Source: Alkalispirochaeta sp. (lineage in GTDB: Bacteria; Spirochaetota; Spirochaetia; DSM-27196; Alkalispirochaetaceae). From it: 64,000 nt of DNA. Position 1 is the stretch's first letter, and every line of letters begins with the position of its first letter. This document shows, piece by piece, positions 10,289-22,770 of the stretch. The DNA lies in the NCBI GenBank assembly GCA_965601925.1, contig OZ271854.1, positions 384,001 through 448,000 of the forward strand. The letters run 5' to 3'. The position numbers were made by a program, and so were the translations under genes. Below the pieces are notes generated by a model, which searched no databases, was not told the origin of the DNA, and worked only from the letters and a program-made list of their open reading frames with translations.

Positions 10289-12004
10289 ATGCTTCCCGAT
10301 GATTCCGGAGGCGAGATCCGCAAACGTGCAGAAGAGATCGCCCAACGACAAACGACTCCCGGAGAGTCACCGCAGGATCGGCTCATATACGAGTTGAAGG
10401 TCCACCAGATCGAGCTGGAAATGCAGAACAGCGAACTGCGCAGCTCGCAACAGGAACTGCAGCGCGCACGCAAGCAGTATGAAATTCTCTTCGATTTCGC
10501 CCCCGTAGCATACTTTGTGTTTAACCAGGAGGGGGGCGTGGTTGAGGCCAACCACGCCGGTGCGGCACTACTCAAGACGGAGCGCAAGTTCCTGGACCGC
10601 AAGCCGTTCATCGTCTTTTTGGCCAACGAATACCACACCGTATTCTTCAACCACCTACGCCGCGTATTCGAGTTGGGGCACCGTCAGAGCACGGAGATTC
10701 AGATCAATACGCGCCAAGGCGGGCAGATCTGGGCTCGTCTGGAGAGTCGTCACCAACGAAGTATCAAGGGCGACTCACAGTGCCTCACGGCGGTGCTCGA
10801 TATCACCGATCGCAAACGTATCGAAGACGATCTGATTCTGGCCCGCGAGGACGCGATGAGTGCCAACCGCGCCAAGAGCGTCTTTCTTGCCAACATGAGC
10901 CACGAGATCCGCACTCCCATGAGCGGTATCCTCTCGATGAGCGAGCTGGCACTCCAAATGAAGCTTCCCGCCGAGGCGGGGCGATACGTCACCGCGATCC
11001 ACAGCGCCGCCCGCTCGCTCTTGTCGGTGCTCGACGACGTGTTGGACGTCTCCAAAGTCGAGGCCGACCAGTTGAGCATCGACAAGCAACCGTTTGCCAT
11101 CCGGGAGCTCCTTACGACGCTGCAAGCGATGTTTCAGCCCCACGCGGCGCAGAAACACCTGGATCTCATCGTAGAGGTACCCGATGCGGTCTCGGATACT
11201 CTCGTGGGCGACCGCAACCGAATCCGACAAGTCCTCGTAAGCCTTCTTGCCAACGCACTCACCTTCACCGAGACCGGCACGGTGACGTTGAGTCTCCGCG
11301 AGGATGAGCTGTCGGGTTTCTTGCGCGAAGTGACCTTCGAGGTGGCCGATACGGGGCCGGGCATCACTCCGGCGGAGCAGCGGCGCATCTTCGAGACCTT
11401 CAACCGGTCGTTGGACGACGAGGAGTCGCGGTACGAGGGCAAGGGACTCGGTTTGGCGATATCGCGACGTTTGGCAAAGTTGATGGGCGGTCAACTTTAC
11501 TTTGAGACCGACCCCGGGAAGGGCAGTCGCTTCTTCCTGTCGGTACCTCTTGAACTTCCGGGAGAAGACGAGGATGTCGACGGTCCCGCACCGGCCTCCC
11601 ATAACGCGGAGGAGACCCAACACGGGACGATTCTCGTCGCCGAGGATAGCGCTATCAACCTCCTGGTGATTAGGACGGTACTCGAGAAGGCCGGGTATGA
11701 CGTGGTGACGGTCGGCAACGGCCACGATGTGATCGAAAAACTTGAAAACGGCGCCTTCGATCTCGTTATAATGGATATATCGATGCCGGGATTGGACGGC
11801 CTCAGCGCGACGCGTCAGATTCGCTCGCGCCAAGGCGACGCATCAATTCGGTGGGACATACCGGTAATCGCAATCTCGGCGCACTCCATGAAAGGAGACC
11901 GTGAGCGCTTTCTTGACGCAGGCATGAACGATTACATTAGCAAACCGTTCGTACGCGACACGGTACTTTCGGTGGTCCGCAAGCATCTCAGGAGTACCTC
12001 ATGA
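10289..12004 (+). CDS. PAS-domain hybrid histidine kinase/response regulator
   Basis: N-terminal ELKVHQIELEMQN coil, PAS domain, H-box ANMSHEIRTP, DTGPGI and GLGL boxes, receiver domain AEDS...MDISMP...ISKP. Confidence 0.92.
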   Translation: MLPDDSGGEIRKRAEEIAQRQTTPGESPQDRLIYELKVHQIELEMQNSELRSSQQELQRARKQYEILFDFAPVAYFVFNQEGGVVEANHAGAALLKTERKFLDRKPFIVFLANEYHTVFFNHLRRVFELGHRQSTEIQINTRQGGQIWARLESRHQRSIKGDSQCLTAVLDITDRKRIEDDLILAREDAMSANRAKSVFLANMSHEIRTPMSGILSMSELALQMKLPAEAGRYVTAIHSAARSLLSVLDDVLDVSKVEADQLSIDKQPFAIRELLTTLQAMFQPHAAQKHLDLIVEVPDAVSDTLVGDRNRIRQVLVSLLANALTFTETGTVTLSLREDELSGFLREVTFEVADTGPGITPAEQRRIFETFNRSLDDEESRYEGKGLGLAISRRLAKLMGGQLYFETDPGKGSRFFLSVPLELPGEDEDVDGPAPASHNAEETQHGTILVAEDSAINLLVIRTVLEKAGYDVVTVGNGHDVIEKLENGAFDLVIMDISMPGLDGLSATRQIRSRQGDASIRWDIPVIAISAHSMKGDRERFLDAGMNDYISKPFVRDTVLSVVRKHLRSTS

Positions 12005-14904
12005 GCAAACCCGACGGCAAAGAAAAATCGTTCTACATCGTCGGAGTGGGAGCCTCGGCCGGCGGCCTCGAGGCGTTGGAGTCGTTTTTCGACAACACGC
12101 CGACGTCCGACGACTTTGCATTTGTCGTCATCCAGCACCTCTCGCCCGACTACAAGAGTCTCATGGCTGAGTTACTCGCGAAGCATACCGAGATGGAGAT
12201 TCATCCGGCCGAGGACGGCATGGAGATACGTCCGGGCTCGATCTACCTCATTCCACGCAAGAAGAACATGACCGTGTACAAACGCAAGCTCTTTCTCACC
12301 GAGCAGGAGCACGGTCTCAACCTCCCGATCGATATCTTCATGCAATCCCTGGCCGAGGATGTCGGCGAGCATGCGATCGGCGTTATTCTCTCCGGTACCG
12401 GGAGCGACGGCACGCGAGGCGTCAGGTCGATCAAAGAGGCCGGCGGGTTGGTCATCGCCCAGGACGAGGACGACGCCAAGTTCGACGGGATGCCCCGCAG
12501 CGCAATCTCCACCGGAATCGTCGACTTCGTACTCCCGGCGGATAAAATTCCGCAGGAGCTCAAAGCCTTCGTCAACGGCGACGTCAAGCTCGTTACCGAA
12601 AATGCGCAGATCCGTTTGGGCGATACCAACGCGATTACCAAGATATTCATGCTCATCAAGCGCAAAACCGGGGTCGACCTCTCGTTTTACAAGGAGACGA
12701 CCATTCTTCGCCGACTGGAGCGGCGAATGGGTATCAACCAGATCCACGACGTGAACCGGTATATCGCCTTCCTGGAGGAAAATCCGCAGGAGATCAACAC
12801 ACTCTTCAAAGAGATTCTCATCGGCGTCACGCGATTCTTCCGCGACAGCGAGGCGTTTGACGTGCTGGCGGATGAGGTAATCCCCGAGATTTTCAACGCC
12901 AAGGAGTCGGGCGATCCGATCCGGGTATGGGTCGGCGGATGCTCCACGGGCGAGGAGGCGTACAGCCTGGCGATCTCTTTGGCGGAATATGCCGAAGAGC
13001 ATTTTCTCCAAAATGACATCAAGATATTTGCGACCGATATCGACAAAGATGCGATCGAGTTCGCCTCCTATGGGTTATACCCCGAAAGTATTGCAGCCGA
13101 TGCGTCGCCGGATCGGTTGGCAAAGTACTTCATAAAAAAGGGCGAAAGCTACCAGATCATCCCGGCAATCCGCGAGATGGTGATCTTTGCGTACCACAAC
13201 ATCTTCAAGGATCCGCCGTTCCGCCGCATCGACCTCATCAGCTGTCGTAACCTGCTCATCTACCTGCAGCCGGTACTTCAGAAAAAGGTGCTCTCCAGCT
13301 TTCACTTCTCGCTTAACACGAGCGGATACCTCTTTTTGGGCTCCAGCGAGTCGATCGGCGATCTGAGCAAATACTTTCAATCCGTCGACACGAAGTGGAA
13401 GATCTTCGCCTATAAAGGTGAACACCACCCCCGGGATTTGCGGATCACTCCGCCGGAGCCCAATTGGTACGAGCACAGAATCTCCAACGATCCGCCGCTC
13501 GAAACCCACGTGAGATCTATACAACGTTCGGACTCGATGTACGAGCACCTCATCGAGGACTATCTCCCGCCGACGATCGTCGTCGACGAGAATCGCCAAG
13601 TCATTCACGTCTTCGGCGAGCTCGGCGACTATCTCAAGATTCCGGCGGGAAAGATGGATCTCGATCTCCTCAAGATGGCGCGCAAGGAGGTCGGCATTCC
13701 TCTGGGAACGGCACTTCAAGCGGCGATTCGCGAGCACGCGGTCATCGCCTACGAGGACGTGGTGGTGCCGCTGCAAAACGGTGAAGCGGAGACGATACGA
13801 CTCACGGTACGCCCCCTGGACGGGGGCTCGGGGGGACGCTTTTTCGCCGTGCTCTTCGAGACGCAGGAGGATCAAGACACCCGGAAGCCGGTCGCGGCGA
13901 TGAAGTTCGACCTCGACGAGAGCGTCCGTCGCCGTATCGCCGATTTGGAGAGCGAGCTCCGGTATACCAAAGAGAATCTCCAGGCGACCATCGAGGAGTT
14001 GGAAACCTCCAACGAGGAGCTACAGGCGACCAACGAGGAGCTGCTGTCGTCCAACGAGGAGTTGCAAAGCACCAACGAGGAGCTGCAATCGGTCAATGAG
14101 GAGTTGATCACCGTTAACTCCGAGTACCAGAAGAAGATCGAAGAGCTTTCGGAGCTCAACGACGACATGGACAATCTGTTATCGGGTACGGCGATCGGCA
14201 CGATCTTCCTCGATAGCGAGCTTACGATCCGCAAGTTCACGCCGCCGGTCGCGCGGCAGATCAACATTATCAAGACCGACATCGGGCGCCCCTTCACCGA
14301 CCTGTCCCACAACCTGCACTACGAGAGTCTTCTGGAAGACGTCACGGCGGTGATGAAGTCCGAGGAGCCGCGCGAGGTCGAAGTACAGAATAAGGACGGC
14401 TACTGGTTTCTCGTAAAAATTCAGCCCTACCGGAGCGAGCAGGAGAAGACGAAGGGTATCGTCCTCTCTCTCATCGATATCACCAAGCGCAAGACCGCAG
14501 AGCTTGCACTGTTGAGACAGCACGAGCTCTTGATGCAGGTTCTCGACTCCAATCCGTCGGCGATTACCATGCTCGACCATCGGGGACGGATTATCTACGC
14601 CAACTTGCGCGGTGCGGAGCTGCTCGGGTATCCCAAGGAACAGCTCCTATCCATGAGCCACGAGGATCCGGCCTTCAACCAGACGAAGCGCGACGGCGGC
14701 GCACTATCGGCCGAGGAGCTCCCCTTCTCGGTCATCCAGAGAACACGCCGGTCCGTCACCGATTTCGAGATGGATATCACCACCGGAACGAAGGCGAAAC
14801 GGATCAGCATCCGGATCAACGGCAGCCCGATCTACGACGAACACGGCGAGGTCGAGGGCGCCGTGCTCCACATGCACCAAATCGAAGACGACGCGGCGGA
14901 GTAG
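12001..14904 (+). CDS. CheB methylesterase-CheR methyltransferase-PAS fusion protein
   Basis: GASAGG, QHL and GSDG (CheB triad). [10 protein letters not shown] and DLISCRN (CheR). NEELQ heptad coil, then PAS domains. ATGA overlap with the kinase. Confidence 0.93.
13990..14106 (+). repeat. Degenerate 21-nt tandem repeat encoding (S/T)NEEL heptads
   Basis: AACGAGGAG(C/T)T recurs every 21 nt. Protein reads [38 protein letters not shown]. Confidence 0.85.
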
Positions 14905-14917
14905 TAACCGCCGCTCG

Positions 14918-15703
14918 TTACGAGGTGGCGGCGGGAGGGCCCAAGGCTCGAATCCGAACCGCCAGACGGTAGTAGTCAAGGGCGCCGCCGCTGCGCAGAT
15001 CGTGCTGAAAGATCGTCCGACCGCGCCCCGGCGCCTCGGCGAGTGACGCGTTGTGGCGGATCGCCTCAAGCACGACACCGTCCCCGAGACGCGTGCGGAG
15101 TTCAGCAATGATCTCCCGTGAGAACGCGGCACTCTCCTCGAAAAAGGTCGGTATGATACCCCGAACGCTCAACTCCGGGTTGGCGTGTCGCCGCGTCTCG
15201 TCTACCAACTCGATAATCTCGACCATGCCCTCCATCGCGAGAAAGTGCGCCTGCATCGGAATGAAGGCTTCGCGCGAGGCGACCAGCGCGCTCATCGTCA
15301 ATAGGTGTGTCGTCGGCGGTGTGTCGAAGATCGTGTAGTCGAAGCGTTCCATGGTCGCCTCAAGACGTTCCTTGATCCACGATTGCGCCTCGCCATGGGC
15401 GGCGAAGCGCCGCTCAAAATCCTCCAAGCGGCGCGAAGAGGGCATGACTTTGAGTCGCGGCACGTACGTATCCCGGAGCGCCTTCTCGGCGGGAGTGTGC
15501 CCCTGCGCCACCTCACCGAGGTCGGACTCGACTTCTGCGATTGAAACGCCTAGTGACATCGTGGCGTGGGCCTGCGGATCGGCGTCGACGACGAGCACGG
15601 TGTTTCCCATGTGGGCGAGCGCCGCCGCAATGTTGACGCTGGTGGTCGTCTTACCGCATCCTCCCTTGCGGTTGGTAAAGACAAGGCGTCGGCCGATGCT
15701 CAT
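14918..15703 (-). CDS. Orphan ParA/Soj family ATPase
   Basis: Deviant Walker A RKGGCGKTT, plus DADPQ, FDTPP and LAEAP. No parB nearby. Confidence 0.92.
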   Translation of the reverse strand: MSIGRRLVFTNRKGGCGKTTTSVNIAAALAHMGNTVLVVDADPQAHATMSLGVSIAEVESDLGEVAQGHTPAEKALRDTYVPRLKVMPSSRRLEDFERRFAAHGEAQSWIKERLEATMERFDYTIFDTPPTTHLLTMSALVASREAFIPMQAHFLAMEGMVEIIELVDETRRHANPELSVRGIIPTFFEESAAFSREIIAELRTRLGDGVVLEAIRHNASLAEAPGRGRTIFQHDLRSGGALDYYRLAVRIRALGPPAATS

Positions 15704-17721
15704 CGATTGCCTCCGGTGATGATCTGATTCAAAATATGGCGCGTGATGGTATACAACGGCGGCACGCCCTCCTCCGTGGTGAGGGGCGCCGCGAGATTGG
15801 CGCCGGCCTCCAACGGCAAGTCGGATACGTAGTACAACGATCGAATCTCGATGTCGGGGCCGATGACTCCCAGCTGTTGTGACTCAAGTATCTCTCTATA
15901 GTAGTGCATGCCTTCCATTTCAATCCCCACGACATCTCGAATCTGTCGATAAAACTGCAACATCTGACGATTCTGCAGGAGCGTCCCGTCGACGGTGAGC
16001 ATCGGCCCGCGATGAACCGTCACGCCGTGCGGTGCGCTCTGACTCGACAATGGCTGGAGCAGGTCACTATGTTGCGCGATAAATGCCGTCGGCGCAAGAA
16101 TATCGCCGCGCCGCCCGACGAGAGCTCCCGCCTTTCCGAGGAAATTTACGCTTCGGATGTTCTGTCCGTAAAGCATGAGGAGATTTCGGATGACGTACTC
16201 CGCCTGTTCGCCGAAGGCGTAGTCGATATTCACAATGACATCGTCGCAGCTCGGCGAGGCGGCTGCGATAGCCTCGACTCCGGGATCGAACGACGCGTCG
16301 ACGAGCGAGGCGAGGTCTACCAACTGCACGCGAATTCCGGTACTTACCGTCTCTTCCAGACGATGGTGTCCGTACCGACGCGCCATGCGCTGCGATTCCG
16401 TCACGTGATCGGGATGTTCGAGAAAAAAATCGCGGGCGAGGGAATACACAAGATCGTGGGGATTCTCCCACCGCACGTCCAAGGCCGGATGAGAGCGCTC
16501 GACCGCCCAACGCTCGATCGCATCGCGCCGTTCGACAAACCACGGATTGAGACAGTTGGTCACCGAGTGCGTGTTGCTGCTCACGATGTGGACGCCGCGG
16601 TGCGGCGGTAGATCGGAGGGATCGATTCCCGTGAGCTCTCGATTGACCCGCGCTACTTCGGCGATCCACAGCTCGCCGCGACGTGCAATGTGCGTGCGTT
16701 GTCGCCGTCTGACGTCGATATCGAACATTTCGCGATGGCGGGCGATTTCGGAAATGCGCGCCGCGGCATCGTCGGGCCATATGCGAACCAGCGCATCGAC
16801 CTCGCGAGAGCTGAACGAAAGCGTATTGAGAAATGCGCGAACCTCATCGGCGAAGTGCGCGTCGTCCGCAACGAACTCGGCGATGCGGGCGAGGCTCCCG
16901 TCACGCCCGACGCGTTTGCGAATCTTCTGAGCCTCCACCGCGTAAACGCACAAGCACGTGACGAGATCGATTAAATCCGAATCCCCGGTGCGGAGCAGCA
17001 CCAGATCTTTTCCGGGTAGCACCTCCCACACGTCTCGCCGGCGCGCCGAGGTGGGCACCACGGGAAAGAGGCGCTCGGAGCCGGCCAGAGCCGGTGGGAG
17101 CTCGTCGACCAGCAGAAACGCGAAGGTTCGCGTCAGATTGTCCGGTAGGCGACGCACCGCGTAGGTAAGCGCGCCGGTATCGATACGGTATTCGTCATGT
17201 GCCCCCGGGTGCAGCGCCGGCTGCAGCGCCAGATAGAGCGGTACGAGCGACCCGATGCCGATGTGGCCGCGCTGTGCGCCCTGGAGGAGCTCGAACTTAA
17301 AACGATCGAACGCGGAGAAGATTCCCTGATTGTCCCTGAGGATTGTCCCGAACCCCTGAGCCAGACTCGGTGAGGCGTGCAGGAGGCGCCGAAACTCCTC
17401 GCCCGAAATGGAATAACACTCGCACTCCGTCAGCGCTCGTGCGCTGAACAGGCGCGGCTCCTGAAAAATCGCCTCCCATTCGCCGAACACCCGATACGTT
17501 TCGATTACGGTGACGAGATCATCGTCGACACGCCGCGGATCGAACACCTCAACGGTGCCGCGGGCGATGAGAAACACCGATTGATCCACATCGTTCTGAC
17601 GGAATATCGTATCCCCCGGTGTAAAGCGGTGAGGACGGAGGCGGAGGGTAAGGTCTCGTCGTTGTCGATCCCGAAGGAACCGAAACGGATGGATCCGGCG
17701 CAGGAGCTCGATTACATCCAC
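15700..17721 (-). CDS. Cyclic-nucleotide-binding protein with C-terminal nucleoside phosphorylase/nucleosidase-like (DUF6909-like) domain
   Basis: cNMP cassette IFRQND...FLIARGTVEV...FGEWEAIFQEPRLFSARA. C-terminus has DYAFGEQA, FLGKAG, GIEMEG and YVSDLP. Confidence 0.75.
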   Translation of the reverse strand: MDVIELLRRIHPFRFLRDRQRRDLTLRLRPHRFTPGDTIFRQNDVDQSVFLIARGTVEVFDPRRVDDDLVTVIETYRVFGEWEAIFQEPRLFSARALTECECYSISGEEFRRLLHASPSLAQGFGTILRDNQGIFSAFDRFKFELLQGAQRGHIGIGSLVPLYLALQPALHPGAHDEYRIDTGALTYAVRRLPDNLTRTFAFLLVDELPPALAGSERLFPVVPTSARRRDVWEVLPGKDLVLLRTGDSDLIDLVTCLCVYAVEAQKIRKRVGRDGSLARIAEFVADDAHFADEVRAFLNTLSFSSREVDALVRIWPDDAAARISEIARHREMFDIDVRRRQRTHIARRGELWIAEVARVNRELTGIDPSDLPPHRGVHIVSSNTHSVTNCLNPWFVERRDAIERWAVERSHPALDVRWENPHDLVYSLARDFFLEHPDHVTESQRMARRYGHHRLEETVSTGIRVQLVDLASLVDASFDPGVEAIAAASPSCDDVIVNIDYAFGEQAEYVIRNLLMLYGQNIRSVNFLGKAGALVGRRGDILAPTAFIAQHSDLLQPLSSQSAPHGVTVHRGPMLTVDGTLLQNRQMLQFYRQIRDVVGIEMEGMHYYREILESQQLGVIGPDIEIRSLYYVSDLPLEAGANLAAPLTTEEGVPPLYTITRHILNQIITGGNR

Positions 17722-17726
17722 CGCGC

Positions 17727-17738
17727 CATGCTATCATG
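17727..17738. promoter_or_regulatory. Putative bidirectional extended -10 promoter
   Basis: CATGCTATCATG reads TG-C-TATCAT on + and TG-A-TAGCAT on -, inside a 47-bp gap between divergent genes. Confidence 0.55.
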
Positions 17739-17768
17739 CCGTCATAGAGTGTCGAAAGGGAGCACGCG

Positions 17769-18356
17769 ATGCACGAGTACGATCCGAACTATCGCGAGCG
17801 CGCATTGGACGACATTTCACGACGATTTGCCGATGATCTCCTTTCCGAGGAGCGATTCGAGACGGCTCTGGCCGAGATCGGCCGCGCAACGACGAATCAG
17901 GACATTGCCGCGATACTGGGCGACCTCCCGACTCGTACGGCCTCTGGGAGCCGTCCGTCCACGCACGACGTCGACGGCGACCACCGGATTGCGGACGCCG
18001 AGGAGGCGTCAACGCGGCTCCCCGCCGATCGCGGAAGTTCGATCGTCGCGATTTTGGGTGAGCGCCGCCTTACCGGGCGTTGGTTGCACCATCGGTACGT
18101 GAGCGTCGTGGCGGTGATGGGTCTCGTCGACTTGGACCTCTCGGCGTGTAAAATCGAAATGCACACCCATATTCATATCGTCAGTGTCATGGCGGAGGTA
18201 CGTCTCCATATCCCGAGCGGTATTACGATCACCAACGACGTGGCGACGCTCATGTCGGGGCACACCGACGAGACGCCCGCCGCGCGTGGCGGCGGCGGGC
18301 ACATACGACTCACGGGAACGGTACTCCTCTCGGAGTTGAAGGTTCGACGAACGTAA
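17769..18356 (+). CDS. DUF1707 (SHOCT-like) + LiaF-like C-terminal domain protein
   Basis: RERALDDISRRFADDLLSEERFE...ILGDLP, followed by VAVMGLVDLDLS and VMAEVRLHIP beta repeats. Confidence 0.75.
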   Translation: MHEYDPNYRERALDDISRRFADDLLSEERFETALAEIGRATTNQDIAAILGDLPTRTASGSRPSTHDVDGDHRIADAEEASTRLPADRGSSIVAILGERRLTGRWLHHRYVSVVAVMGLVDLDLSACKIEMHTHIHIVSVMAEVRLHIPSGITITNDVATLMSGHTDETPAARGGGGHIRLTGTVLLSELKVRRT

Positions 18357-18393: not shown

Positions 18394-19365
18394 TTAGTTC
18401 AGCACACCGGGCGCGGCGGGAGGGCGCAGAGTGATGTGTCCTCGCACACGCTGCAGAATGTGCCAACCGTCGGTATAGGTGAATCCCTCACACAGGTCCA
18501 TGAGATGTTGTTCGGACGGCTCGTCGAAACCGAAGTCAAAACTGCAGATCGGGTGTTCGATGAGACCGCGAATGAGGGCGAGATCGAGTCCGCGAGCCAT
18601 CAGAAACTGCGCAAACGAAGAAGCATCGAGTCCGGCGGGGGTACCGTCGGGTGCGAGCAGGTAGTCGCGGGTATCCAGCAACTGCTCGAAGGGGCTCCTG
18701 GAGATGTGCACGGCACGAGCGATCGGCATCCTCTGCAGCAAGAGCCCCCGCTCCACGAGCGCCCGCTTCATCTCCACGGCGACCTCGAAAAAGTGACGGT
18801 AACCCTCACGGGTACGAAAAGTCATAACGGCGATGTCGGTCGCGGCGCTGTTCTTGTGCAGGAGTGCCGGCACGTCGTAGTTCACGATCCAGACATCTTG
18901 GTACCGCTTGACCACCTGCCCGGCGATCCGAAACACCGCCGACTCTTCCACCCATAGATCGAAGAGCTCCTCGGGCGACCACGCAAACCGGCGCAACGCC
19001 TCGAAGGCGCCGATCACGCGGGCGGGTCGGAACTCGGCCCGGTAGAAGTCCTCGAACTGCCGTATCATATCCAGCGTAAACGCCCGACCGCCGTGAACGG
19101 CGAAAAAGAGCCTGAGCGAATAGTGGCGTTCTATGATCTTGCGGCTCACGATGTAGTCGCCGGGCATATTGGCCATATATATCAGCTTTACATGCTGATC
19201 GTTCTTACGGCATTCCTTGATAACCGAGAGAATAGCACTCTCCACGGCGACGCCGTTACTCTCCGGGCGTAAATAGAGGAAAATATCAAGCAGGTCCGGA
19301 TCGGGGTCCGGCCCGACGTACGGGACGAGAATCTTCGGTTTATGAAGCGCCTGCGTCTCCATCAT
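18394..19365 (-). CDS. Hypothetical protein, probable atypical nucleoside-diphosphate-kinase-like fold
   Basis: IFLYLRPE, IIERHY and AVHISRSPFEQL resemble NDK-like motifs. Overlaps the pheT end by 26 nt. Confidence 0.5.
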   Translation of the reverse strand: MMETQALHKPKILVPYVGPDPDPDLLDIFLYLRPESNGVAVESAILSVIKECRKNDQHVKLIYMANMPGDYIVSRKIIERHYSLRLFFAVHGGRAFTLDMIRQFEDFYRAEFRPARVIGAFEALRRFAWSPEELFDLWVEESAVFRIAGQVVKRYQDVWIVNYDVPALLHKNSAATDIAVMTFRTREGYRHFFEVAVEMKRALVERGLLLQRMPIARAVHISRSPFEQLLDTRDYLLAPDGTPAGLDASSFAQFLMARGLDLALIRGLIEHPICSFDFGFDEPSEQHLMDLCEGFTYTDGWHILQRVRGHITLRPPAAPGVLN

Positions 19366-21106
19366 CGCCGTGGATCAATACCTCCAAGTCGACCTCACCG
19401 CCGGTACAGGGCATCTGAATCCCCCATGCGTCGAGGACTCGGGGATGAACTTCACCGAAGACACCGACGACATTCTCGCTTCCGGCGCGAACGATCTGGG
19501 CCGCTCGCCCGGGAATGAATCGGCTGTCGTGCACCTCCCGGACGGTGTATTCATGCCCTAGATAGTACAGTATAGCCGATATATGGGAGTTTACCAGATT
19601 GAAACCTGCGCCTCGATCGGCGGAGACGAATCCGAGTTTGGTGAGCGTTCGGGTTCCGCTCGCCTCGTTTTCGGCGCGGCAGGCGATCTTGCCGACTTCG
19701 AACACGTGGTGCGGATAGACGGCGTTTCCGCTCACCGACTCGGCGGCGAGGAGCGACGGCAGAATCGATGGACGCACGAACTCATAATTCTCGCTCATCG
19801 GATTGGCGATGCGCACGACGTGAGAGAGCGCCTCGGTCCACTCGTCCTCGGGATACATCCTCTCGACGAAATCCCTTCCCGAACCGAGATAGTTAAAAAT
19901 CATCTCCTGGAATCCCAGACCGACCATTACGGTCTTGGCGCGGCGAGAAAACTCTTCGATCGGCAGTAACCGTCCCACGGTAAAATCGCGCGGCATTTCG
20001 GCGACGAAACTTTCCATCCCACGGCCGATCATCACCTCCTCGACGACGTCGACGGCGTGAAGAAAGTCGTTGCGGTACTCCGGCACCCGAATGGAAACGT
20101 GTTCGACGTCCGACGGCGAGGTCGGCTCCGTCACCTCGATCCCCATACGGCGCAACGCCTCGGTCACCTCGGAACGGCTCAGATCGACGCCGAGCATAGC
20201 GTTAATCTCGCTCATCGCAGCGTCTCGTCCGGTCTGGAAATAGTAGGGCACGGTGATCTCTCGTCCATACGGCGTATCGTACGGATACTCGATACGTACC
20301 GGCTCGATGGCGTATCCCATGTCCGCTGCGTCGCACGCAACGATCGAGGCGGTTAGGAGGAGAGAATCGAGATCGCTTCCGGTTAGCTCCACAAAGAGCG
20401 TCGTATCACCCTCCACGACGGCGCCGATCGTAGCGCTGTTTATTACCGGCGGAAAGCTCAGTATCCCCCCGCGATCGTCGGTCAAAATAGGGAAGCGCGG
20501 GAGCTCGGCGACGATGTGACCGAACTCGACTCCCTTGGGGTGTTCGGTAAGCATCTGGCGCATCGAGAGCTCGCGCTCCATCTGCAGCGGCACGAATCGC
20601 GTCGAATCGGGATCGACCGCCTTGTAGTGTACGGGATACTCGATAAGGTCCGACCGGTAGATTCCCATGGAGATCGAACGCCGTTTTCGCCCGAAGTTCC
20701 ACGTAAGCTTTTCCTGCGTCTGAATCAAGTCCTTGAGCACCACCTCACTCAAGGGAGGGCCGGTCATGACGAATCCGGCGAGATAGGGCCTGATATCCCC
20801 TACCGACCGATCCACCACGACGCGGCGCGATCCCGTCTCGCGTTGCGTCGCGGCGTTGGAAAAGAAATCGTACTGCGGCGGCTCCGCACCGCGATACAGG
20901 CGCAACTGTCGCGCCAGACCGGCGGTCGACCACAGATCGGGCCGGTTGGTGTCGTTCAGCTCGACCTTCATAAACCCGTCGTCGCCGGCCGGCTCGTCGA
21001 GCTCGGCCTTGGCGGCGGGGAAAATGGCCTCCAGTTCGTCGTCGGTGATGGCAGACGCGCCGATCGCCGTAGTCAGCGCCGCGCGCGATATTTCGATTTT
21101 CGGCAT
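19340..21106 (-). CDS. pheT: Phenylalanine-tRNA ligase beta subunit (short archaeal/eukaryote type)
   Basis: ELNDTNRPDLWS, QTQEKL, SFPPVINS, YRNDFLHAVDVVEE and FGEVHP. 588 aa. Confidence 0.96.
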   Translation of the reverse strand: MPKIEISRAALTTAIGASAITDDELEAIFPAAKAELDEPAGDDGFMKVELNDTNRPDLWSTAGLARQLRLYRGAEPPQYDFFSNAATQRETGSRRVVVDRSVGDIRPYLAGFVMTGPPLSEVVLKDLIQTQEKLTWNFGRKRRSISMGIYRSDLIEYPVHYKAVDPDSTRFVPLQMERELSMRQMLTEHPKGVEFGHIVAELPRFPILTDDRGGILSFPPVINSATIGAVVEGDTTLFVELTGSDLDSLLLTASIVACDAADMGYAIEPVRIEYPYDTPYGREITVPYYFQTGRDAAMSEINAMLGVDLSRSEVTEALRRMGIEVTEPTSPSDVEHVSIRVPEYRNDFLHAVDVVEEVMIGRGMESFVAEMPRDFTVGRLLPIEEFSRRAKTVMVGLGFQEMIFNYLGSGRDFVERMYPEDEWTEALSHVVRIANPMSENYEFVRPSILPSLLAAESVSGNAVYPHHVFEVGKIACRAENEASGTRTLTKLGFVSADRGAGFNLVNSHISAILYYLGHEYTVREVHDSRFIPGRAAQIVRAGSENVVGVFGEVHPRVLDAWGIQMPCTGGEVDLEVLIHGDDGDAGAS

Positions 21107-21115
21107 GATTCCCCC

Positions 21116-22678
21116 TTATCCGGCGCGACGCCTGAGCCGAACGTGCTCGATATCGGAACTGAAGAGCTCTCTTAGGTCGTTGAGTCCCAGATGCATCAGC
21201 GCCATCCGATCGATACCGAGCCCCCACGCCAACACGGGAACGTCGATCCCCATAGGACGCGTCACCTCGGGACGGAAGATTCCCGATCCACCGAGCTCAA
21301 ACCATCCGAGGCGCGGATGTTTGATATGCACCTCTACAGACGGCTCGGTGAACGGAAAGTAACCCGGCACGTAGCGCACTTCCGTTGCGCCGGCCAGCTG
21401 TTCCGCGAACATCTTCAAGAGGCCCAGTAAGGTGCGCAGATTGACGTCTTTTCCCAGAACGATTCCCTCGGTCTGGTAGAAATCGGCAAGATGCGTTGCA
21501 TCGACCTGATCGTAGCGAAAACAGCGCAGAATCCCGAAGTACTTGCCGGGAACTTTCGCCGTCGGTAGCGCTTTCGCCGACATGACCGTTCCCTGACTCC
21601 TGAGAATGAGCCGGCGCGTGAAGTCGCGATCGAAGCGATAGTTCCATCCTCGACTGCCGGTTTCCCACCCGTTCTCGTGCGTTGTCGCGACGCGGGAGAG
21701 AAACGGCTCTTCTATTTCGGTGGCGTGGCGCGGATCGTCGACGTAATACACATCGTGAATGTCCCGCGCCGAGTGAAATTGCGGCATAAAGAGCGCGTCG
21801 GAGTTCCAGAACTCGGTCTCGACGATCGGTCCGTCAAACTCCTCGAATCCCAGGGAAACGAGCTTGTCTTTTACCGAGTCGAGATACTCGCAATAGGCGT
21901 TGCGCCGCCCCGGGAGCACGCGCGCGACCGGCGCGGAGAGTGCATACTCGCGAAACCGTTTGCCTCGCCACGTACCGTCGCGGAGCATCTCGGGCGTCAG
22001 TTGCCCCTCTTCGTCTCCGGTTAGCCCCGCGGCCGCCAAGGCGTCGCGCACCTCCGTGCCTTGGACGGACAGTCGATATCGCACCCGCTCGCGCTCGATA
22101 ATCCGAAACATCGCCGACGACGCGCCGCGCTTCTTTGCGTGCCCGGCGATCGCCGCACGCTCCTCCTCGGAGAGCGAGGCGTCTTCGATTCCACCCGCCG
22201 CCGCGCGGTCGAGGAGCCGGCGAAGCACCGCGTCGGGTCGAGGCATGTCCTCATTGGAGTCGATCGCGGAGGCGAGGCGTACGCGCTTCTCGTCGTCCAT
22301 GGCGAGGACGTTCAGTTTGGAGAGGTGGCCGAAGGTCGAACCGACGTCCCTTTTCTCGAGCCCCGTCGCCGCGGCGAGGTGAGGCATCGCCAGAGGTCCC
22401 TTCTCGGCGACGGTCCTGATTATACGCTCCGCCGGCGTTCCGGCGGCGGCAAACTCCGCCCCGAGTTCGGTGCGTTCGTAGGTCACCGAGGGAAGGCGCT
22501 CTACCTCATCGATAAGCGCCTTGGCGGAGAGCCAACTAATCGCCTGGTTGCACTGCCCCAGTACCAGACCGAGATCGATCTGCATGCGGTCGGCGTCGAA
22601 TACGGAGTCAACATCGTACCGGAGAAGGGTCTTGACCTCCAACGGGTGAAGACTCTTGAGAGTTGCATCGGAAACCAT
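21116..22678 (-). CDS. pheS: Phenylalanine-tRNA ligase alpha subunit (long archaeal/eukaryote type)
   Basis: FWNSDALFMPQFHSARD, FRYDQVDATHLADFYQTEG, YFPFTEPS and AWGLGIDR. Start at MVSD is inferred from TATAAT 7 nt upstream. Confidence 0.96.
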   Translation of the reverse strand: MVSDATLKSLHPLEVKTLLRYDVDSVFDADRMQIDLGLVLGQCNQAISWLSAKALIDEVERLPSVTYERTELGAEFAAAGTPAERIIRTVAEKGPLAMPHLAAATGLEKRDVGSTFGHLSKLNVLAMDDEKRVRLASAIDSNEDMPRPDAVLRRLLDRAAAGGIEDASLSEEERAAIAGHAKKRGASSAMFRIIERERVRYRLSVQGTEVRDALAAAGLTGDEEGQLTPEMLRDGTWRGKRFREYALSAPVARVLPGRRNAYCEYLDSVKDKLVSLGFEEFDGPIVETEFWNSDALFMPQFHSARDIHDVYYVDDPRHATEIEEPFLSRVATTHENGWETGSRGWNYRFDRDFTRRLILRSQGTVMSAKALPTAKVPGKYFGILRCFRYDQVDATHLADFYQTEGIVLGKDVNLRTLLGLLKMFAEQLAGATEVRYVPGYFPFTEPSVEVHIKHPRLGWFELGGSGIFRPEVTRPMGIDVPVLAWGLGIDRMALMHLGLNDLRELFSSDIEHVRLRRRAG

Positions 22679-22770
22679 GGCGCGCATTATAGACAAAAGC
22701 ACACGCGACACACCACCCTGTCCCACAGACGAGGATTGCACGCCCCGTGTCGCGCTCGGACCGGACTCGT

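Follow-up and report, generated by a model that had tools for sequence, protein, structure and literature searches.

A cyclic nucleotide monophosphate (cNMP)-binding domain is joined to a predicted nucleosidase fold in a protein of 673 amino acids (aa) from Alkalispirochaeta sp. Its gene lies in a 64,000-nucleotide stretch of assembly GCA_965601925.1 (contig OZ271854.1, here C1:384001-448000), referred to below as the window; the genome is a single contig of 5.05 Mb. The gene is directly followed by that of an orphan ParA ATPase. On sequence and structural model the cNMP-fused, nucleosidase-fold enzyme is real, and it is uncharacterised. The explanation preferred here, to which a probability of about 0.55 is assigned, is that the protein would be a purine N-glycosidase with a housekeeping role, belonging to the NP-I (PNP/MTAN/Amn) superfamily, probably hydrolytic and under second-messenger control, co-translated with a chemotaxis-type ParA that appears to have been relocated behind it.

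Domains and fold of the enzyme

Pfam assigns residues 31-115 to cNMP_binding (E 1e-16) and residues 158-668 to DUF6909, PF21850 (E 2e-119). The second match scores 399.8 bits against a gathering cut-off of 27, and covers profile positions 3-534 of 535. An earlier note on this DNA, made from the sequence alone, had listed four motifs in the 673-aa open reading frame (ORF), and all are present: FGE...PR at 79-90, FLGKAG at 527-532, GIEMEG at 599-604 and YVSDLP at 631-636. What that note overlooked is that residues 158-668 correspond to an existing Pfam family which includes a middle domain of approximately 210 aa. PNP_UDP_1 matches the protein below the Pfam cut-off, and PF01048 is matched by 22 of 54 members at E<=0.1.

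The AlphaFold model of the enzyme, made with an alignment of 128 rows (the wide alignment), has a pLDDT of 95.9 and a pTM of 0.94. Comparison of this model with 48,161 representative chains gave matches over residues 1-135 and approximately 346-672. The former resemble the cNMP domains of SthK, Clr, PKA-R and PycTIR, with Z about 18. For the C-terminal domain (343-673) the highest Z is to MTAN 6aym (20.6, root-mean-square deviation (rmsd) 2.5, 199 residues aligned), followed by PNP 1odi (20.4), uridine phosphorylases (UP, 19-20), Amn 7uwq (18.3, 229 residues aligned) and Amn 1ybf (15.4). When the C-terminal part was compared by hhalign with 19 AMN-like proteins, P was 95% (E 2.9e-8), as against 13% for a 13-row UP/DeoD profile and less than 1% for two unrelated controls; among the 19 is a protein whose match to the solved Bacteroides Amn (1ybf) has E 5e-102. 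The PNP/MTAN/AMP-nucleosidase fold which the earlier note had proposed from motifs is therefore borne out by these two lines of comparison, and the architecture of cNMP domain, middle domain and nucleosidase fold is confirmed at the level of the model. Profile-profile and structural comparison were needed for the link because a search of PDB sequences with the C-terminal profile found no PNP relative. Foldseek with the whole model returned cNMP domains, with one MTAN row among them.

The middle domain gave nothing informative when searched against PDB sequences. It contains a series of residues which are invariant in all 113 homologues of the close alignment, namely H171, R191, R227-R229, R244, D249, E263, K266, R268, H329 and E331. 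Elsewhere in the protein G80, R90, K530, E601-M602-E603 and S633-D634 are invariant in the same 113.

Active site and cyclic nucleotide sensor

According to a study of Amn (PMC9584410), its base and sugar are contacted by N205, W383, M404, E405 and D428, and the phosphate by H188, Y189, R381 and K436. Aligned through the AMN-like profile, M404, E405 and D428 become M602, E603 and D634, each present in 127 of 128 rows. N205 corresponds to N383, and H188/Y189 to E362/L363, with less certainty, as judged from the spacing of the motifs and the range aligned in the fold search. The alignment maps R381 to T580, W383 to L582 and K436 to A644. Judged by alignment, the residues for recognition of base and ribose are kept, but those for the 5'-phosphate of Amn are not. 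The Amn models TIGR01721 and TIGR01717 in NCBIfam do not match the enzyme at E<=0.1. The substrate would be a purine nucleoside or nucleotide, presumably bound in a different manner from AMP in Amn because H188, Y189, R381 and K436 lack a counterpart.

Hexameric PNP/UP phosphorylases carry a phosphate-binding Arg before the G-x-x-G strand. That position is F527 in the enzyme, and is hydrophobic in 126 of the 128 rows. Because the phosphorylase Arg is replaced in this way, the N-glycosidic bond is probably cleaved hydrolytically. K530, R538 and R661 (127, 118 and 113 of 128 rows; the last two also invariant in the close set), together with R227-R229, R244, E263, K266 and R268 of the middle domain, could form another site, and in the middle domain the unvarying basic patch may provide for phosphate binding of a new kind.

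The cassette of the sensor, which the earlier note had described as intact, is indeed conserved, with G80 and R90 in 113/113 close homologues and E81 in 112, though it is atypical at Glu83. There are 15 matches to class III cyclases in the host genome (14 of them over the cut-off) and 22 cNMP domains, and with so many of both a dedicated cyclase is not needed. None of the 15 cyclase matches falls in the window, as that note had also stated. Cyclic AMP (cAMP), or cyclic GMP, from these cyclases would tune the activity of the enzyme, so that purine salvage or the pool of adenylates would be coupled to signalling.

Several observations weigh against a hydrolytic, cyclic-nucleotide-tuned purine enzyme. 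The fold search leaves MTAN, PNP, UP and Amn unranked (Z 18-21). The catalytic Glu of MTAN, which follows the first strand, has no apparent counterpart; S386 is at that place, as judged only by offset within the range aligned. Genomes of the order without DUF6909 are also without Amn, so that there is no complementary pattern. In the sensor, Glu83 (E in 108/113) stands where solved cNMP domains such as SthK have Ala, and of the 98 rows in the wide alignment that have a cNMP domain only 64 keep the G/E/R triad intact. An alternative is that the fold is right and the chemistry or regulation is other: the enzyme might be a phosphorylase with a rebuilt site, might act on modified nucleosides or cofactor by-products, or might have a cNMP domain with another ligand or none. 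Candidates for a rebuilt phosphate site exist in K530, R538, R661 and the middle-domain arginines, the fold search puts MTAN, PNP and UP level at the top, fusions to NADAR and DFP-type domains occur in protist members, the cassette has Glu83, and the triad is degenerate in 34 of the 98 rows. This alternative is doubtful, though to be taken seriously, as the profile is much closer to AMN-like proteins than to UP/DeoD, and G80 and R90 do not vary among the close homologues.

The distribution of DUF6909 as against Amn was also considered as a guide to function and set aside as uninformative, since Amn is found in 0/99 genomes of the order; four control genomes do match.

The linked ParA and the surrounding locus

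The ParA belongs to AAA_31 by Pfam (E 8e-44). The overlap of the enzyme TGA with the ParA ATG, which the earlier note had reported, was found as a shared ATGA with GGAGG five bases upstream. An orthologue of this ParA is present in 21 of the 22 genomes of the host family (the host genome, G000, included). It directly follows DUF6909 in 20/20 of those with both, and the 4-nt overlap is found in 16/16 host-family loci, both of which are as expected of a functional pair and add to the case against a ParA which serves some other cargo. Outside the family the situation differs. ParA is absent from 53 of the 73 genomes of the order with DUF6909; of 77 genomes from other families G330 alone matches it at E<=1e-60, and does so with a paralogue on another contig; and 64 of the best 80 loci have the enzyme without ParA, some of these loci ending close to the gene. 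In one genome of the host family (G020, a metagenome-assembled genome (MAG), 90% complete) the ParA and DUF1707-like genes are intact while no more than a short 5' piece of the enzyme gene is left (L162:1220-1498), possibly a true deletion, possibly an assembly error. The linkage is a single inherited event, local to one family. The suggestion of a dedicated ParA thus holds as regards adjacency in the host family and fails for most enzyme-bearing genomes of the order; likewise, the proposed survey of co-occurrence supported it in 20/20 DUF6909-bearing genomes of the host family but not in other families, nor in G020, where ParA apparently outlasts the enzyme gene.

A role in chromosome partitioning was rejected for this ParA, which has no adjacent parB, is away from the skew minimum and lacks the Soj arginines. 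The parAB genes of the genome are at C1:1624925-1626689, by the GC-skew minimum at 1628705, and its only ParB_N matches, at C1:1625775 and C1:4488356, are outside the window, in agreement with the absence of a nearby parB claimed earlier. The two sites of the non-specific DNA-binding arginines of Soj, R189 and R218 in B. subtilis numbering, are both Arg in 10/10 chromosomal Soj rows; in the 59 rows of the ParA orthologue group the six residues found most often at each of these sites do not include Arg. The NCBIfam minD model matches far below its cut-off, and the C-terminus is short and, by eye, unconserved. A third, more distant ParA-like gene is found at C1:5021421-5022188 on the minus strand of the host genome, with 29% identity and no parB beside it.

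The nearest relatives of known context outside the orthologue group, three in number, are all encoded within chemotaxis operons. G017 and G330 have the ParA gene directly before cheA, which is followed by cheW and MCP genes; in G451 it is flanked by two cheW genes on one side and by a STAS gene on the other, after which comes an Hpt-bearing ORF truncated where the locus ends. A quick tree puts the G017 and G330 proteins in a group adjoining the orthologues (support only 83), and the G451 protein nearer Soj on a long branch. Orphan ParAs of this kind, PpfA and ParC, position chemoreceptor clusters, according to PMC9178275. The best reading of these sequence comparisons is that the window ParA is a relocated ATPase of the chemotaxis-operon (ParC/PpfA-like) type. 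Its move to the place behind the enzyme gene would date from the ancestor of a single family, and it probably positions another cargo.

By eye, the gene after each of these chemotaxis-operon ParAs (L174:6884-9382, L181:4539-7100 and L183:2237-2782) starts with a ParB-like peptide. These genes encode CheA or, in one case or more, a STAS protein, and the peptide resembles the N-terminus of the host genome's ParB, which suggests that CheA itself may be the ParA activator in those spirochaetes. The orthologous CheA of the host genome has neither a ParA gene upstream nor such a peptide at its N-terminus. No ParB-like partner peptide was found on the chemotaxis proteins of the host genome, a further point against the preferred reading, and a crude regular expression for it gave four matches in the genome, of which only ParB itself is convincing.

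The other use to which a ParA freed from a chemotaxis operon and from DNA binding might be put is to position or gate the cNMP-nucleosidase, for example at the cell poles, near cyclases, the two genes then forming a module. The conserved adjacency, the Shine-Dalgarno sequence and overlap at 16/16 loci, the separate chemotaxis ParA which G017 has besides its enzyme-linked copy, and the state of the host CheA would all be accounted for. However, the cases descend from one event and are not independent, the majority of genomes of the order keep the enzyme without ParA, G020 has apparently kept the ParA without the enzyme, and no ParB-like peptide was found on the enzyme. Such a module is considered unlikely. 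A more elaborate proposal is decidedly unlikely. In it a chemotaxis-array ParA would have been rewired to carry a cAMP-gated purine nucleosidase, so that a nucleotide-degrading enzyme under second-messenger control would be placed in space, its middle domain providing a phosphate or allosteric site of a new kind.

Features of the locus, with positions in the window and strand.
Feature	Positions	Strand	Basis and remarks
cNMP_binding-DUF6909 gene	15700..17721	-	673 aa, GTG start; ORF call, Pfam, AlphaFold model
cNMP-binding domain, residues 1-135	17317..17721	-	Pfam, structural Z about 18, conservation
Phosphate-binding cassette G80-E81...R90	17484-17452	-	within the cNMP-binding domain
Middle domain, residues about 136-345	16687..17316	-	conserved basic and acidic residues
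Predicted PNP/MTAN/AMP-nucleosidase-fold domain, residues about 346-673	15703..16686	-	N383, K530, M602, E603, D634; hhalign and structural Z
Orphan ParA gene	14918..15703	-	261 aa; intact deviant Walker A KGGCGKT; ORF call, Pfam
Shine-Dalgarno GGAGG (15714-15710) and ATGA stop/start overlap (15703-15700)	15700..15714	-	translational coupling
Sigma-70-like promoter match, extended -10, weak	17728..17755	-	ends 7 nt before the enzyme GTG
DUF1707/LiaF-like gene between cluster genes	17769..18356	+	opposite strand; both Pfam matches below cut-off
323-aa conserved orphan, core gene of the order	18394..19365	-	directly after pheT; syntenic upstream neighbour of the enzyme gene
pheT and pheS	19340..22741	-	upstream housekeeping context; Pfam; recurrent at related loci

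The promoter match is weak in that the scan found 3 sites where 1.4 +/- 1.2 were expected. No Shine-Dalgarno sequence was seen by eye before the enzyme GTG, and a transcript leaderless at this codon is possible on the sequence. The DUF1707/LiaF-like gene has counterparts at 10 related loci. The pheT gene encodes 588 aa with a PhetRS_B1 domain and pheS is long (541 aa), sizes which we presume to be those of PheRS of the archaeal/eukaryal type. On the plus strand, a PAS-histidine kinase-receiver gene and a CheB-CheR-PAS fusion (10289-14904) converge on the 3' end of ParA; a similar CheB/CheR gene is found at 15 of the best 80 loci.

Distribution and comparison with known systems

DUF6909 was found in 33 of 41 near relatives; for the order as a whole the count is 73 of 99 genomes, or 37 of 50 when only those of high quality are taken, nearly always at one locus, and across the phylum it is 6 of 251. 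A profile-free search of 1.84 billion representatives yielded 481 matches, and among the 50 of these which were scanned there are additional REC, GAF, NADAR and DFP domains. Four named ones are from protists: the ciliate Blepharisma, and Ploeotia, Neometanema and Sulcionema. P0180 (from the ciliate), P0182 and P0229 combine DUF6909 with a C-terminal DFP domain (phosphopantothenoylcysteine-synthetase-type), an N-terminal NADAR domain or both. In P0144, P0146 and P0232 receiver or GAF domains are added ahead of the cNMP-like region, which in our reading of the sequences would represent repeated recruitment of sensory inputs. A FastTree phylogeny was built from 93 of the 128 rows, after removal of short rows and thinning of the close set, with a midpoint root only. 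It separates 13 unfused proteins from a branch of 80 rows with all the cNMP-fused ones, protists included (support 100).

None of the 39 pattern matches in IMG/VR was confirmed as a relative, there was no match in 50,697 phage records, and 2 of 72,556 plasmid records match, the one inspected having housekeeping neighbours. A metagenome scan with P0189 gave one locus. The recurrent neighbours at related loci are pheS-pheT, the 323-aa orphan and a HAD hydrolase. The orphan is present in 40 of 41 genomes. Both genes occur in 32 genomes, in 29 of which they are no farther apart than about 3 kb; in the other three the two are split across contigs. The near-core spread, the pheS-pheT neighbours, the protist relatives and the lack of a match in the phage collections argue for a housekeeping role rather than anti-phage defence, and the distribution of the cNMP-DUF6909 protein fits this.

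The orphan itself has no Pfam match. By eye, its invariant Y31-x-R33-P34-E35 and H220 are NDK-motif-like, and its Atlas row has a score of 0.89, with NDK on 22% of members. Its identity as an NDK was not borne out, as the PDB profile search was unsupportive and hhalign to the genome's own NDK gave P 0.9%; a canonical NDK is encoded elsewhere in the host genome.

Defence had been thought by the earlier note to be no less probable than signalling or metabolism. The protein would then be an anti-phage effector activated by a cyclic nucleotide, whether like the ATP nucleosidase Cap17 or of the Pycsar kind. PNP-domain ATP nucleosidases are defence effectors (bioRxiv 10.1101/2023.01.24.525353), and the cNMP domain matches PycTIR models, weakly by sequence (E about 1e-4) and with a structural Z of 18.8, like any cNMP domain. 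The enzyme is, however, near-core, mostly at a single locus and syntenic with pheS-pheT. The window has no class III cyclase, and the recurrent neighbours include neither a cyclase nor a CD-NTase. PADLOC gave nothing beyond E 0.04 with the enzyme domain. The neighbour ORFs compared with PADLOC numbered 123, a single one for each cluster, taken from 30 of 80 loci, called mechanically and some in the wrong frame; 8 match at 1e-10, mostly through generic domains, with no cyclase or CD-NTase. The phage collections also argue against this explanation, which is rejected as highly improbable. Signalling or metabolism is the part of the earlier assessment that fits, the equal odds given to defence do not, and the parallel with Pycsar and CBASS is a resemblance at the level of domains and nothing beyond.

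In a literature search which covered few subscription papers, none was found that names DUF6909 or PF21850, and none on a fusion of AMP nucleosidase with a cyclic nucleotide-binding domain. Were the preferred reading true, a cAMP-regulated nucleosidase would be common to free-living spirochaetes, some other bacteria and protists, and second-messenger signalling would be linked directly to purine salvage. The pairing with ParA would matter only if the two proteins bind; otherwise it is a lineage-specific operon rearrangement.

Of the systems with which the enzyme can be compared, the closest in sequence is DUF6909 itself, a Pfam family of unknown function, homologues of which are already named 'cyclic nucleotide-binding domain-containing protein' or 'DUF6909 family protein' in the sources; among other DUF6909 proteins the enzyme belongs to the cNMP-fused branch. 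Cap17/Detocs (CBASS) and the Pycsar effectors have in common with it the layout of a sensor plus a PNP fold, and the fold of the cNMP domain, but the enzyme has no cognate cyclase or defence context and its spread is vertical and near-core. Vibrio ParC and Rhodobacter PpfA are, like the window ParA, orphan ParAs away from oriC; they differ in that the window ParA stands behind a metabolic gene and outside any chemotaxis operon, and that no ParP/TlpT-like partner adjoins it. The best matches of the structural comparison are MTAN (6aym, 4f1w) and hexameric PNP/UP (1odi, 4lnh), with Z 19-21 and an rmsd of 2.5-3.6 A over approximately 200 residues; from these the enzyme is set apart by an identity of 12-16%, by F527 at the phosphorylase-Arg position and by the seeming absence of the MTAN catalytic Glu. 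Finally, it is unlike Amn (EC 3.2.2.4; 1t8r, 7uwq, 1ybf; TIGR01721) in that the phosphate-site residues are replaced by E362, L363, T580 and A644, the middle domain is another one, and there is a cNMP sensor. Amn is nevertheless the best profile match, with equivalents of N205, M404, E405 and D428 kept, and it too has extra N-terminal domains ahead of the catalytic domain.

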